The notes beneath the pieces were generated by a model, which saw only the letters and a list, made by a program, of their open reading frames with translations, was not told the origin of the DNA and searched no databases. A DNA stretch of 63,915 bases, the filler included, from Reclinomonas americana ATCC 50394 (taxonomy: Eukaryota), in assembly GCA_048213135.1 (NCBI GenBank). It is 5 parts of 4 records of this genome, joined end to end, with 100 filler letters (N's around TTAATTAATTAA, not from the genome) between each part and the next. Parts side by side here need not be neighbours in the genome. Positions count along the whole stretch, not along the records: positions 26,358 to 51,556 come from PS015353.1; 4 more parts are not named here. One strand, written 5' to 3'. Positions 40,139 to 51,520 of the stretch are shown here, one piece after another. How positions within the stretch are numbered: position 1 is the stretch's first letter; each line of letters opens with the position of its first letter. A program made the translations under genes and the position numbers.

Positions 40139-43100
40139 TTATGCCTCCATGAGCTGCCGAAGTCGCTCCATCTGCTCGCGCACGGCCAGCAACTCTTTCT
40201 CGACGCGCCGCTGAACTTCGGTCTCCAGTTGCTCAGCGATGCGTCGTCGTTCCTCCGCCAGCTGCTCCGCAACCGCCGCAGCAGCTCGTCTCCTTTCCTC
40301 CGCAAGCCGGTCTTCAACCTCCGCAGCAGCTCGTCGTCTTTCCTCCGCAAGCCGCTCTTCAGCTTGGTTTCTTTCCTCAGCCAGCCGCTCTTCGACCTCC
40401 GCAGCAGCCCGTCTCCTCTCCTCCACCAGCCGCTCTTCAACTTCCGCAGCAGCCTGCCGCCTCTCCTCCGCCAACCGCTCCTCAAACACCGCTCGATTCC
40501 TCTCAATGAGCGCCTGCTGTTCGCGGACGGCCTCCACGAGCAGCGCCACCACCGGGCCGTACTCGACCTTCTTGAACCTTTCACCGCGCACAGCTTGTAG
40601 CTCCGATACCAGTTCTGGGAAGTGCTCCTCGAGCTCCTGTGCGATAAAGCCAACAGATGGCGATCCAACAGGCTTGCCAAAGAGACGAGACACCTGCCCG
40701 CAGACCACAAAAAGTGAGTGCTCGAATCATCTCGAGCGTGGCACTTCCACGAACACCGCACCTCATTCCACTCGTATCGGTGGCCACTGAGACGCAGAGT
40801 CAGGCCCAATGCATTCTCAATCGGACGAATGTTGGCCTTCAATCGTACGTCAGACATGGAGTTGTCGAGCGCCACCGTGTGCACATTCGAATCTCCGGTC
40901 TTGAACACCAACTGCGTACACGCGACAACGACAAAAGAGTTAGTTCACGGACAAGTAGACACAGAAAATTGTTAAAGTGTAATGCGACGAGCACGCAACA
41001 TGGCCACTGTCGAAGAATAGCGCGGCATCATTCGTGGCCGGATCGTCGACATCTGCTGCCGCCGTGGCCTTCAGATAGAGCGCGGTGGTCGACATGCCTC
41101 CATTGGCGAGAACTGTCTCGCCTTCGATGCTGCCCATTGTTGTGAAGCTGCCGGCGCTCACCAGGCCGAACGAGCTCACGGTACCAGATTTGACTGATCC
41201 AATCGTTGTCACGCTACCGCCAGTGATTAGGCCGCTAGCAATCACCGTCGAACCGGTGCTAATGGTGCCTGCTTGCATGCTGCCGGCGGTCGTCACACTG
41301 CCGCCAGTGATCAGTCCGCCGGCAATCACAGTCGAGCCAGTGCTGATGGTGCCGGCTTGCATGCTTCCCGTGGTGGTGAAACTTCCAGCGCTCACCAACC
41401 CGAATGAGCTCACAGTACCCGACTGCATGCTCCCTGCCGTCGTCACGCTGCCGCCAGTGATCAAACCACCGGCAATCACAGTCGAGCCGGTGCTGATCGC
41501 GCCAGCTTGCATGCTGCCCGTGGTGGTGAAACTTCCAGCGCTCACCAAGCCGAATGAGCTCACAGTGCCAGACTGCATGCTGCCTGCCGTCGTCACGCTG
41601 CCGCCGGTGATCAAGCCGCCAGCCGTCACAGTCGAGCCAGTGCTGATGGTGCCGGCTTGCATGCTTCCCGTGGTGGTGAAGCTTCCAGCGCTCACCAACC
41701 CGAATGAACTCACAGTGCCGGACTGCAGATAACCAGCCGTCGTCACGCTGCCGCCGGTGATCAAGCCGCCGGCCGTCACAGTCGAGCCAGTGCTGATCGT
41801 GCCAGCTTGCATGCTGCCCGTCGTCGTGAGACTGCCTCCGCTGACCAAGCCGAACGAGCTCACAGTGCCGGACTGCAGGTAACCAGCCGTCGTCACACTG
41901 CCGCCAGTGATCAAGCCACCGGCTGTCACAGTCGAGCCGGTGCTGATCGTCCCTGCTTCCATGCTTCCCGTGGTGGTGAAGCTACCAGCACTGACCAGAC
42001 CAAACGAGCTTACAGTGCCAGACTGCATGCTGCCAGCCGTCGTCACGCTGCCTCCAGTGATCAAGCCGCCGGCAATAACCGTCGAACCGGTGCTGATCGT
42101 GCCAGCCTGCATGCTTCCCGTGGTGGTGAAACTTCCGGCACTGACCAGACCGAATGAGCTCACAGTGGCAGACTGCAGATAACCAGCAGTCGTCACACTG
42201 CCGCCAGTGATCAAGCCGCCGGCAACAACCGTCGAGCCGGTGCTGATCGTACCGGCTTGCATGCTGCCAGTCGTCGTCACACTGCCGCCGCTGATCAGTC
42301 CGAACGAGCTCACAGTACCCGACTGGAGATAACCCGCCGTCGTCACGCTGCCACCAGTAATCAAGCCACCAGCCGTCACAGTCGAGCCGGTGCTGATCGT
42401 GCCTGCTTGCATGCTTCCCGCGGTGGTGAAGCTTCCAGCGCTGACCAAACCGAACGAACTCACAGTACCAGACTGGAGGTAACCAGCCGTCGTCACGCTG
42501 CCGCCGGTGATCAAGCCGCCGGCAACAACCGTCGACCCAGTGCTGATGGTGCCTGCTTGCATGCTTCCCGTGGTGGAGAAGCTACCGGCACTGACCAGGC
42601 CGAATGAGCTCACAGTGCCCGACTGCATGCTGCCTGCTGTCGTCACACTGCCGCCAGTAATCAAGCCGCCGGCTGTAACAGTCGAGCCAGTGCTGATCGT
42701 GCCAGCTTGCATGCTACCCGTCGTCGTGAGACTGCCTCCGCTCACCAACCCGAACGAGCTCACAGTGCCGGACTGCAGGTAACCAGCCGTCGTCACACTG
42801 CCGCCAGTGATCAGTCCGCCGGCCGTCACAGTCGAGCCGGTGCTGATGGTGCCAGCCTGCATGCTTCCCGTGGTGGTGAAGCTACCTGCGCTGACCAGAC
42901 CAAACGAGCTCACAGTGCCAGACTGCAGATAACCCGCCGTTGTCACACTGCCACCAGTGATCAAGCCACTGGCGATCACAGTCGAGCCAGTGCTGATGGT
43001 CCCGGCTTGCACGCTACCAGTCGTCGTCACACTGCCTCCGCTGACCAGACCGAACGAGCTCACAGTGCCCGACTGCATGCTACCCGCCGTCGTCACACTG

Positions 43101-49100: not shown

Positions 49101-51520
49101 AGATAACCAGCCGTCGTCACACTGCCACCAGTGATCAAGCCGCCAGCAACAACCGTCGAGCCGGTGCTGATCGTGCCAGCCTGCATGCTTCCCGTGGTGG
49201 TGAAGCTACCGGCACTGACCAGGCCGAATGAGCTCACAGTGCCTGACTGCACATAACCAGCAGTCGTCACGCTGCCGCCAGTAATCAACCCGCCGGCAAT
49301 CACCGTCGAGCCGGTGCTGATCGTGCCAGCTTGCATGCTGCCGGTTGTCGTCACACTGCCGCCGCTGACCAGACCGAACGAGCTCACAGTGCCCGACTGC
49401 ACGCTACCGGTCGTCGTCACACTGCCGCCAGTGATCAAGCCAGCTGCTGCGACTGTGCCTGCTGTTGTGAAACTGCCTCCAGTTGCGAGACCAGTGACAA
49501 CGAGATCTCCTTCGATACGCACTGGCGAAGTCGACGCCGCTGGAATGCGCAGACGGACTACGCCATCCACAATCATTTGTATCTCGCTGCCCGACGACGC
49601 ATCGCCTGTAGTAACATTCGCACACAGTCAGCGACTGATCAGCAAGGACAAAGTACCGGCACAATGAGCATCGCTCGTACCTCCAACAGCAAAGATTCCC
49701 GTGTCGCCGTCTTGCGAGAACGAGAAGCCGGCATTGCTATTGTCGCTAGTTGGTGCACCCTTGCCAGCGCGCACGCCACCGACAGCATGCACAGTTGACG
49801 ACGGGTTCGTCACGCCAAAACCAACGAAACCAGTAGCTGCGCGGACCACCTGCACCAATACAAAAGTGAGCACTCCATCAAACGACCGCACGTGAGTCAA
49901 AAACACAAACCATGCGATTCGTCTGTAATACAACGTCTCCAAAGCCATCGGCCAGACTCAGATCTCCAGCGCCGCTTACGCTGACAAAATCACGAGTGAA
50001 TAGTCGGAGAGTGGTGGAGCCTGCAGTCACCAGGCGGAGGACATCCAGGCCGTGGCTCAGCAACACCAGGTCGCCCACAGTGGCATCTGCACATGCAAGA
50101 GTAACAGGATTTAGCATTCATGTGTCCGTGACCGTGTTGTAGATGCAGCGCGCGAGAACACAACTGTCAACAAAGAGGCCAGTTGGTGTTGTCGTGTCGA
50201 GTGAAAATCCGANNNNNNNNNNNNNNNNNNNNNNNNNNNNNNNNNNNNNNNNNNNNNNNNNNNNNNNNNNNNNNNNNNNNNNNNNNNNNNNNNNNNNNNN
50301 NNNNNNNNNNNNNNNNNNNNNNNNNNNNNNNNNNNNNNNNNNNNNNNNNNNNNNNNNNNNNNNNNNNNNNNNNNNNNNNNNNNNNNNNNNNNNNNNNNNN
50401 NNNNNNNNNNNNNNNNNNNNNNNNNNNNNNNNNNNNNNNNNNNNNNNNNNNNNNNNNNNNNNNNNNNNNNNNNNNNNNNNNNNNNNNNNNNNNNNNNNNN
50501 NNNNNNNNNNNNNNNNNNNNNNNNNNNNNNNNNNNNNNNNNNNNNNNNNNNNNNNNNNNNNNNNNNNNNNNNNNNNNNNNNNNNNNNNNNNNNNNNNNNN
50601 NNNNNNNNNNNNNNNNNNNNNNNNNNNNNNNNNNNNNNNNNNNNNNNNNNNNNNNNNNNNNNNNNNNNNNNNNNNNNNNNNNNNNNNNNNNNNNNNNNNN
50701 NNNNNNNNNNNNNNNNNNNNNNNNNNNNNNNNNNNNNNNNNNNNNNNNNNNNNNNNNNNNNNNNNNNNNNNNNNNNNNNNNNNNNNNNNNNNNNNNNNNN
50801 NNNNNNNNNNNNNNNNNNNNNNNNNNNNNNNNNNNNNNNNNNNNNNNNNNNNNNNNNNNNNNNNNNNNNNNNNNNNNNNNNNNNNNNNNNNNNNNNNNNN
50901 NNNNNNNNNNNNNNNNNNNNNNNNNNNNNNNNNNNNNNNNNNNNNNNNNNNNNNNNNNNNNNNNNNNNNNNNNNNNNNNNNNNNNNNNNNNNNNNNNNNN
51001 NNNNNNNNNNNNNNNNNNNNNNNNNNNNNNNNNNNNNNNNNNNNNNNNNNNNNNNNNNNNNNNNNNNNNNNNNNNNNNNNNNNNNNNNNNNNNNNNNNNN
51101 NNNNCGTCGAAGTGCGCTCCAAATGGTGGAGGAGCGCCAGGGCGCGCACGAATGCCACCTCTCACGGACAAGGAGACTCGTGACGCGTTGGAGGTCAGCG
51201 AACTCGACGGATTGCTGTCAACAGGCGCATCAGCAAGAGCCCCGAGAGCATGAGCAGTGTGTAAGAGTGGCAGTATCAGTGGACGTACCCGATTACGATG
51301 CCATCCGTGAACGCATTGGTGGGATTCAGTCGCAAAGCATTGTCGGCAACTGCGTCCACATTAGGGTCGTAGACGTTGGCGGTGAGGCGGAGCGGGTTGC
51401 CAAACTGCAGCGATCGTGTAGTCAGCGACACGAACGAGCCGTTCATCGCAACACCGCCGCCGTCTTGAATGAGCAGGCGATTGGTGCCATTGGTGAACAG
51501 AGAAACGTCGTTGGAGTCTC
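40139..51520 (-). CDS. Giant tail-fibre-like protein: fibre motifs, about 50 x 50-aa Gly/Ser/Thr repeats, Peptidase S74 (ICA) domain, coiled coil; 5' end missing
   Basis: N-side motifs DVSLFTNGTNRLLIQDGG, GFVGFGVTNPSSTVHAVGGVRAGKGAP..GFSFSQDGDTGIF. C-terminus MSDVRLKANIRPIENAL...LSGHRYEWNE-...VGFIAQELEEHFPELVSE...KKVEYGPVVALLVEAVREQQ. GT-AG introns at 40694-40761, 40912-40999, ~49606-49655 and further upstream. Confidence 0.88.
40240..40485 (-). repeat. ~45-bp coding repeat EERLAEERRRAAAEV in the C-terminal coiled coil
   Basis: About 5-6 units in ORF 40139-40708. Confidence 0.85.
41130..49440 (-). repeat. 150-bp coding tandem repeat (MQAGTISTGSTVTAGGLITGGSVTTAG[YL/SM]QSGTVSSFGLVS[AG]GS[FLV]TTTGS)
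   Basis: 150-bp periodicity with an open frame throughout the sequenced parts. About 48 units are sequenced, with two gaps and one 66-bp short unit near 44125-44190. Confidence 0.97.

Follow-up and report, generated by a model that had tools for sequence, protein, structure and literature searches.

Can a free-living eukaryote carry a phage-type fibre as a gene of its own? The question is raised by a locus of Reclinomonas americana ATCC 50394 (assembly GCA_048213135.1). The stretch of DNA analyzed, called the window here, has a length of 63,915 nucleotides (nt), and a multi-exon fibre gene ending in a Peptidase_S74 domain lies on its minus strand (40139-51556), at the end of piece 2 (26358-51556) of the five assembly pieces that make up the window. 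The protein is ordered as two N-terminal collar modules, a shaft of 50-residue repeats, Peptidase_S74 and a charged helical tail. On balance, we consider that this gene probably was acquired horizontally, has long been resident in the nuclear genome and encodes a self-cleaving and probably trimeric fibre. Its parts, listed from 5' to 3', were as follows.

51289-51556, minus strand: exon piece farthest upstream, some 90 codons, including LFTNGTNRL; open frame, cut by the end of the piece
51215-51288, minus strand: intron of 74 nt, GTACGT..CAG; its excision would join '..TDGIVIG' to 'GNPSSS..', which gives the collar motif
51105-51214, minus strand: exon piece that carries the first collar module (..GGIRARPGAP..) and is interrupted by the N gap at 50213-51104
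50087-50212, minus strand: 3' part of a sixth intron, with a CAG acceptor at 50087, a pyrimidine-rich end and stops in all frames; its 5' part lies in the gap
49911-50086, minus strand: exon of 58 codons plus 2 bases, predicted from the sequence
49850-49910, minus strand: intron of 61 nt, GTTTGT..CAG
49681-49849, minus strand: exon of 56 codons with the second collar module, GFVGFGVTNP .. GGVRAGKGAP .. GFSFSQDGDTGIF
49606-49680, minus strand: intron of 75 nt, GTACGA..CAG, containing an in-frame stop
41000-49605, minus strand: giant exon in which a short unique beginning is followed by about 49 resolved copies of the 150-nt repeat and 45 unique codons
40912-40999, minus strand: intron of 88 nt, GTTGCG..CAG, with a CTAAC branch-like site; the unspliced frame stops at 40942-40940
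40762-40911, minus strand: exon of 50 codons, the last 19 stalk residues and the N-half of S74
40837-40854, minus strand: SDVRLK, with the predicted catalytic Ser (40854-40852) and Lys(+5) (40839-40837), assigned by alignment to S74 proteins
40694-40761, minus strand: intron of 68 nt in phase 0 that splits S74, GTGCGG..CAG
40139-40693, minus strand: last exon, 184 codons and the stop (40141-40139), with the C-half of S74 (GFIAQE..FPELV..VALLVEAV) and an E/R/A-rich helix of about 120 residues
40250-40492, minus strand: tandem repeat of 45 nt (15 residues), 5.7 copies by Tandem Repeats Finder (TRF), within the helical tail

The motifs on which the original prediction was based were all present on the minus strand, namely LFTNGTNRL (51.5 kb), GGIRARPGAP (51.1 kb), GFVGFGVTNP with GGVRAGKGAP (49.7-49.8 kb), SDVRLK and GFIAQE..FPELV. 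A double GG(I/V)RAxxGAP..GFS element had also been claimed; GG(I/V)RA was found twice, but the second GFS is hidden, because an N gap begins there. The predicted size of more than 3000 residues was reached in sum by about 3,026 resolved codons, although these form segments that are each separately open and not one proven open reading frame (ORF).

The proposed check with the profile PF13884 matched both halves of the S74 domain. The N-half exon matched profile positions 1-33 (E 1.1e-5, 26 bits), exceeding the cut-off of 22, and the last exon matched positions 41-57 (E 2.1e-3) with 18.7 bits, under the cut-off of 22. A hidden Markov model (HMM) of our own, built from seven retrieved S74 proteins, aligned the 50-codon exon to profile positions 2-34 (E 1.3e-5) and the last exon to positions 38-96 (E 7.7e-17); over the window it detected no S74 besides this gene and the second S74 gene described below. 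Seven PHROG families matched the 50-codon exon and 19 the last exon (best 4.9e-13), nearly all of them tail fibre, long-tail-fibre distal subunit or baseplate wedge. The last exon matched 15 phage records with 41-47% identity, and a word-indexed protein search with the S74 half confirmed five of 522 candidates (42-56% identity). A PDB sequence search with the shaft and both S74 exons gave no meaningful match. SDVRLK aligned with the S-D-x-x-x-K of the seven S74 proteins; Ser, Asp and Lys(+5) were intact, and so was the Gly in GFIAQ. For MYRF and phage endosialidases, PMC3742443 lists these four positions as catalytic or conserved; their MYRF equivalents are described there as essential, and Ser and Lys as the catalytic dyad.

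The gene appears to be spliced. In phrog_5668 (tail fibre), positions 1452-1496 are covered by the 50-codon exon and 1498-1552 by the last exon; the two are collinear and abut, and therefore the 68-nt GT..AG stretch between them would have to be spliced out. This predicted intron falls where phage S74 profiles run uninterrupted. It had been claimed that two introns flank or split the S74 region, and the 88-nt and 68-nt GT..CAG introns, as read from the sequence, agree with this. Five predicted introns were fully resolved (61-88 nt); all have the form GT..CAG, and the excision of each removes stops or a frameshift and restores the frame. The coding frame of 41000-46382 contained no stop in 1,794 codons, and the other five frames contained 16-153 stops.

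The shaft is a tandem repeat with a period of 150 nt. TRF reported it with 82-86% matches in four stretches of 19.3, 15.1, 5.5 and 8.7 copies, the rows overlapping slightly. By pattern search, 46 unit starts were found, comprising 42 clean units of 50 residues and four irregular ones (28, 40, 72 and 100 residues); 16 of the 50 columns vary among the clean units. Over the 861 pairs of units the identity was 84% for DNA and 92% for protein, with a proportion of synonymous differences (pS) of 0.46 and of nonsynonymous differences (pN) of 0.049, a pN/pS of about 0.1 and a ratio of substitution rates (dN/dS) of about 0.07. The repeat units are under strong purifying selection, with synonymous sites near saturation. 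The divergence together with the low pN/pS therefore indicates old copies that were kept by selection on the protein. Recent duplication of the units and an assembler artefact were also considered, and both were ruled out by the pS of 0.46 against the pN of 0.049.

Within the units a sub-period of 11 residues was observed (autocorrelation 0.60 for glycine and 0.69 for hydrophobic residues). The 2,553 resolved shaft residues consist of 22% G, 20% T and 19% S (61% G/S/T), with less than 1% D, E, R and K together and no C or W. No Pfam family fits the shaft. Searched against 1.84 billion representative proteins, it gave 358 matches at E<=1e-3, 60 at <=1e-10 and four at <=1e-30. The best among these representatives was P0006, only 36% identical, and there was no self-like sequence or close relative among them. 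Composition-adjusted BLASTP gave 35% identity for P0006 (E 3e-47) and 34% for P0019 (E 3e-24), with the G..G sub-repeats in register. The top matches were metagenome proteins on contigs up to 182-310 kb. In a Pfam scan of the 20 best shaft matches, PF13884 was found in one (P0019), a FapA beta-solenoid in five (E<=1e-4), a weak T7 tail-fibre N-domain in three and no family in nine; a few others were unrelated (RCC1, MAM). Three scans of a viral contig collection recovered no relative, and none of 54 pattern matches in metagenome contigs was confirmed. Look-alikes of the shaft in the Atlas belonged to viral hypothetical, bactofilin-like and Chlorophyta fragment clusters; their recognition was low (1236) and they serve as leads only.

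The collar modules upstream of the shaft had been said to resemble fibre proteins, which held only at the level of motifs. G-x-VG-x-G..P..L-x-V-x-G was present in six of 158 fetched proteins, including three of the five S74 proteins found via the S74 half, and the 56-codon exon matched phrog_33377 (E 3e-7) and phrog_14570 (E 3e-4), both families of unknown function. Direct searches with the exons did not extend this. The word-indexed protein search confirmed 0 of 419 candidates for the 92-residue exon and 0 of 29 for the 56-residue exon, and tblastn of the collar exon against phages returned a single weak record (E 1e-2). The exon piece 51289-51556 had no match in Pfam or PHROG.

On the C-terminal side, S74 is followed by about 120 residues rich in E, R and A that include the 15-residue repeat. 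A period of 15 residues would be more compatible with one stable helix, or with a right-handed coiled coil of three chains, than with a classical heptad coil. The C-terminus is complete, and the highest Kyte-Doolittle mean over 19 residues after S74 was 0.86; therefore, no membrane anchor follows the domain. An NDT80/PhoG-type domain had no Pfam match in the resolved fibre exons, with the missing 5' end and the 892-nt gap as a small loophole. By both results the gene is not MYRF-like, and the claim of a giant, phage-fibre-like gene terminated by S74 is supported.

Is the surrounding DNA that of a host or of a virus? The window contains 7,220 N in 22 runs. Linkers of 44 N, TTAATTAATTAA and 44 N occur four times (26258-26357, 51557-51656, 54080-54179 and 61424-61523) and were read as six-frame stop linkers. 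Therefore, the window consists of five separate assembly pieces, and adjacency across the linkers is artificial.

1-26257: piece 1
26358-51556: piece 2
51657-54079: piece 3
54180-61423: piece 4
61524-63915: piece 5

Because of the linker at 51557-51656, the proline-rich and (GA)n sequence past 51657 is not the upstream neighbour of the fibre gene. Since the piece ends at 51556, inside the fibre gene, the 5' end and start codon of the gene are missing. On its 3' side, N is absent between 34015 and 46382, so that the S74 end, 36 repeats and an intron-bearing C3HC4-type gene lie on one contig. The cellular genes used for comparison were the following.

39866-40017 and on to about 38860, minus strand: C3HC4-type gene with its ATG at 40017, 121 nt past the fibre stop, recognized by Cys/His spacing
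28789-31875, plus strand: WD40-repeat gene or genes on the same piece as the fibre gene, at least seven repeats in an open stretch of 499 residues and more downstream
21666-22660, plus strand: RPSA gene (ribosomal protein SA) on piece 1, with Ribosomal_S2

The distance of 121 nt between the fibre gene and a RING-type gene was as originally given. The C3HC4 RING call is a reading of the Cys/His spacing, and Pfam found nothing in two exon fragments, one of which was in the wrong frame. A predicted 77-nt GT..AG intron splits the Cys/His spacing, and a further intron filled with (CA)n/(CT)n and an Ala/Pro-rich exon were read in this gene. The spacing of 121 nt is unusually short for an otherwise gene-poor stretch.

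RPSA has four introns (90, 67, 59 and 63 nt) with the donors GTGCGT, GTTTGT, GTGCGT and GTAACG and CAG acceptors. The donor hexamer of the fibre intron 49850-49910 is identical to that of the RPSA intron 22056-22122 (GTTTGT). Judged by their signals, the predicted fibre introns are of the same class as those of RPSA. The GC content at third codon positions (GC3) was 0.46-0.72 in the fibre exons, 0.64-0.68 in WD40, 0.69-0.79 in anoctamin and 0.90 in RPSA. Tracts of (CT)n/(GA)n with at least six units were found at 31 sites distributed over all five pieces, three of them on piece 2. Outside the repeat there are 178 ORFs of 110 aa or more, of which 128 were scanned with Pfam; the other 50, in overlapping frames, were excluded by eye. 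The families detected were WD40, MORN, anoctamin, proteasome, Ribosomal_S2, WKF and GH114, and no capsid, packaging ATPase, polymerase or integrase family was present in these 128 of 178 ORFs. The fibre gene sits in eukaryotic DNA, and in composition and surroundings it agrees with the remainder of the genome. RPSA is in addition a useful reference for host splice signals and codon bias.

A second multi-exon, fibre-like S74 gene was found on piece 1.

about 7100-10517, plus strand: second S74 gene, with SSRRFK and a helical tail
10012-10089, plus strand: predicted intron inside its S74
10156-10223, plus strand: predicted intron inside its S74

The exon 9907-10011 matched PF13884 at profile positions 1-29 (E 6e-8, 33 bits), and our own HMM matched this gene at positions 2-38 (E 1.8e-5) and 64-101 (E 5.5e-6). 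A stretch of 200 nt, free of N, separates its stop from the C-terminal exon of a proteasome subunit (PF00227, E 1.2e-5). In the alignment its S74 is of a different subtype from that of the first gene. The first S74 intron of the second gene falls within 1-2 residues of that of the first gene, both in phase 0, which may reflect common ancestry of the intron or chance. Together, the two divergent S74 genes suggest a small family. An arrangement of both S74 genes 30 kb apart on one chromosome stretch was considered and rejected, as a linker separates their pieces. Many of the (CT)n/(GA)n tracts immediately precede an open frame, as does the one at 7036 ahead of the second S74 gene.

How such a protein might work can be proposed from known S74 proteins. 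S74 is described in PMC3742443 as acting only as a trimer, in which it chaperones folding and then cleaves itself, with K1F endosialidase as an example. The fibre gene would have been acquired long ago from a virus or a bacterium. By analogy with phage endosialidases and MYRF, three chains would associate at the C-terminal S74, and this domain would nucleate folding of the beta-shaft, which would progress toward the N-terminus. After trimerization the Ser, with Lys(+5) as the base, would be expected to cut the chain just before SDVRLK. The cut would free a piece of about 215 residues, chaperone and helix, and a stable, nearly uncharged, hydroxyl-rich fibre would remain. With a rise of about 0.5 nm per 11-residue sub-repeat per chain, the fibre may be roughly 0.1 micrometre long, and other folds would give 50-200 nm. 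At a guess, it is extracellular or a component of a surface or projectile structure.

A more far-reaching proposal can be made only tentatively. Phage-type S74 fibres may have been adopted by a free-living eukaryote as a small family, by old acquisition and duplication. With the help of the self-cleaving chaperone, the cell would build an uncharged, hydroxyl-rich trimeric filament of about 0.1 micrometre for a structure such as a surface hair, a scale, an adhesive thread or an ejectile organelle; S74 would then have been domesticated a second time, structurally and independently of MYRF. Two divergent members with nearly the same S74 intron position would point to an old acquisition followed by duplication. 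A domesticated fibre had been suggested before, and its eukaryotic DNA, host-type introns, host-like GC3 and lack of a viral hallmark in the scanned ORFs speak for that part. The roles then proposed, as surface hair, adhesin, prey-capture or extrusome component, went beyond what these results support.

Several points weigh against a resident gene for a trimeric fibre. The splicing was read from sequence alone, and expression is likewise only predicted. The start codon, a signal peptide or a membrane anchor are beyond reach, as the 5' end is missing. Three N gaps (46383-47301, 48121-48140 and 50213-51104, the last of 892 nt) break the gene, and the frames are unconnected across the two gaps within the repeat exon; this is expected, because gap sizes are estimated, and a single intact full-length ORF is thereby not proven. 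An AlphaFold2 monomer model of 300 shaft residues was all-beta and periodic with low confidence (pLDDT 49.8, pTM 0.54). Foldseek found no match for it in the PDB at E<=1e-3, and neither the model nor Foldseek was taken as evidence of the fold. The Pfam scan covered 128 of the 178 ORFs, and Pfam has no models for some small-virus capsids. Finally, S74-ended giant fibre genes are described as common in polinton-like viruses integrated in protist genomes (PMC12220804), and S74 as enriched in the genomic islands of giant viruses (PMC13620141).

The last two points lead to the alternative that survives best, which we nevertheless judge unlikely: the gene could be the attachment fibre of an endogenous polinton-like virus or virophage, or of a giant-virus insertion, its introns having been gained after integration or tolerated by a nuclear virus. 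The shaft matches on contigs of up to 182-310 kb would fit such an element, and so would the phage tail fibres that are the closest cultured relatives of the S74 half (41-47%). Giant viruses, moreover, often carry WD40 and RING genes, which counts for this alternative. However, none of the 128 scanned ORFs encodes a capsid, packaging ATPase, polymerase or integrase, with the sequence beyond 51556 lying outside the piece, and the three viral-contig scans recovered no relative. At least six predicted introns of spliceosomal type resemble those of RPSA, whereas the part of PMC12220804 that deals with introns names only those of group I. Moreover, the second S74 gene adjoins a proteasome subunit exon, and GC3 and microsatellites agree with the other pieces.

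A silent relic, transferred once and either unexpressed or broken in the gaps or the missing 5' end, is quite unlikely. The incomplete 5' end, the three N gaps and the frame that is untraceable across two of them in the repeat exon would all allow it, as would the lack of a close relative (at most 36% identity among 1.84 billion representatives). A relic would not be expected to keep about 3,026 codons open within their segments, nor to show a pN/pS of about 0.1 and a dN/dS of 0.07 between repeat units. The five resolved introns still keep GT..CAG and restore the frame, and the catalytic Ser, Asp and Lys are intact.

It is improbable that the gene is cellular with a shaft that forms a monomeric beta-solenoid like bactofilin or FapA, in which case S74 would be merely a self-cleaving module. 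The all-beta, periodic monomer model (pTM 0.54), several single-chain beta-solenoids among the weak Foldseek rows and the FapA family in five of the 20 best shaft matches (E<=1e-4) are in accordance with this, and bactofilin clusters among the Atlas look-alikes are a lead. However, the pLDDT of the model was 49.8 and Foldseek gave no match at E 1e-3; the shaft also matches P0019, which is terminated by S74, and S74 is described as acting only in trimers (PMC3742443).

Contamination by bacterial or phage DNA, or an assembly chimera, is scarcely credible: the nearest named relatives are bacterial or phage sequences (three loci of a Patescibacteria metagenome-assembled genome, 36-49%, and phage tail fibres, 41-47%) and the assembly is fragmented and gapped, but spliceosomal-type introns were predicted inside conserved domains, the gene is contiguous with the intron-bearing C3HC4-type gene with no N between, and its GC3 is host-like.

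With the resident fibre gene as the preferred reading, its closest counterparts are the S74 tail fibres and tailspikes of phages (K1F endosialidase, cyanophage, Vibrio phage). These have the same order of shaft, S-D-x-x-x-K, GFIAQE..PELV and C-terminal helix, and the collar motif is common to the fibre gene and S74 proteins. In contrast to them, the fibre gene is located in eukaryotic DNA with at least six predicted spliceosomal-type introns and cellular neighbours (WD40, C3HC4-type). Its shaft, with at least 2,553 residues of repeat, is much longer and carries almost no charge, and the tail after S74 is longer by about 120 E/R/A-rich residues. No baseplate-attachment domain was recognized in the fibre gene, whose N-terminus is missing. 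The virion-gene neighbourhood expected of a phage or viral fibre was absent from the 128 of 178 ORFs scanned with Pfam.

The fibres of polinton-like viruses, virophages and giant viruses are likewise very large, built of repeats, ended by S74 and found in protist assemblies, as described in PMC12220804 and PMC13620141. According to PMC12220804, polinton-like viruses of most eukaryotic groups ubiquitously carry modular fibres of up to 3.9k residues with S74 at the C-terminus. In PMC13620141, S74 is counted with the adhesion genes for which giant-virus islands are enriched, and a Chlorella secretome study is cited for a role of S74 in surface adhesion. As far as described in PMC12220804, these viral fibre genes are intron-free and stand beside capsid and replication genes, whereas the fibre gene has host-type introns and no viral gene in the scanned ORFs. 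The viral fibres described there use laminin-G, collagen, adenovirus-fibre or phage-tail-repeat modules, none of which was detected by Pfam in the fibre gene.

The two best shaft matches, P0006 (1,964 residues) and P0019 (1,693 residues), align in the 11-residue G..G sub-repeat, and P0019 ends in PF13884. They differ from the fibre in their shorter, charged units (D, N, E), the lack of a 50-residue super-repeat and a different N-terminus; P0006 has no S74, and their contigs are up to 182 kb long.

To our knowledge, MYRF/MrfA is the only characterized cellular eukaryotic use of S74 (ICA). It has the same Ser/Lys dyad and a trimer-dependent self-cleavage, as described in PMC3742443. In contrast, the fibre gene has no transmembrane segment after S74, and a fibre shaft in place of a DNA-binding domain lies N-terminal of the cleavage site. 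In the passages of PMC13294678 on S74, the domain is named only together with NDT80 domains. No intron-bearing, non-MYRF cellular S74 fibre gene was found in the literature, searched mostly at the level of titles. S74 fibres of polinton-like and giant viruses are already published.

S74 has thus been known in two settings, the fibres of phages, giant viruses and polinton-like viruses, and MYRF, which keeps the trimerize-and-cleave switch alone. If our reading is true, a spliced host gene that retains the whole fibre would mean that a viral structural module can be taken over entire by eukaryotes. Such a gene would also be a defined candidate for one of the many surface or ejectile filaments of protists. 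The practical value is limited pending evidence of expression.

Over the window, scans found no Rfam match, no tRNA and no telomere-like repeats. Runs of CAG/CTG type at 52504-52911 and 54132-54705 read as poly-Q, poly-A or Cys/Gly-rich text in several frames.

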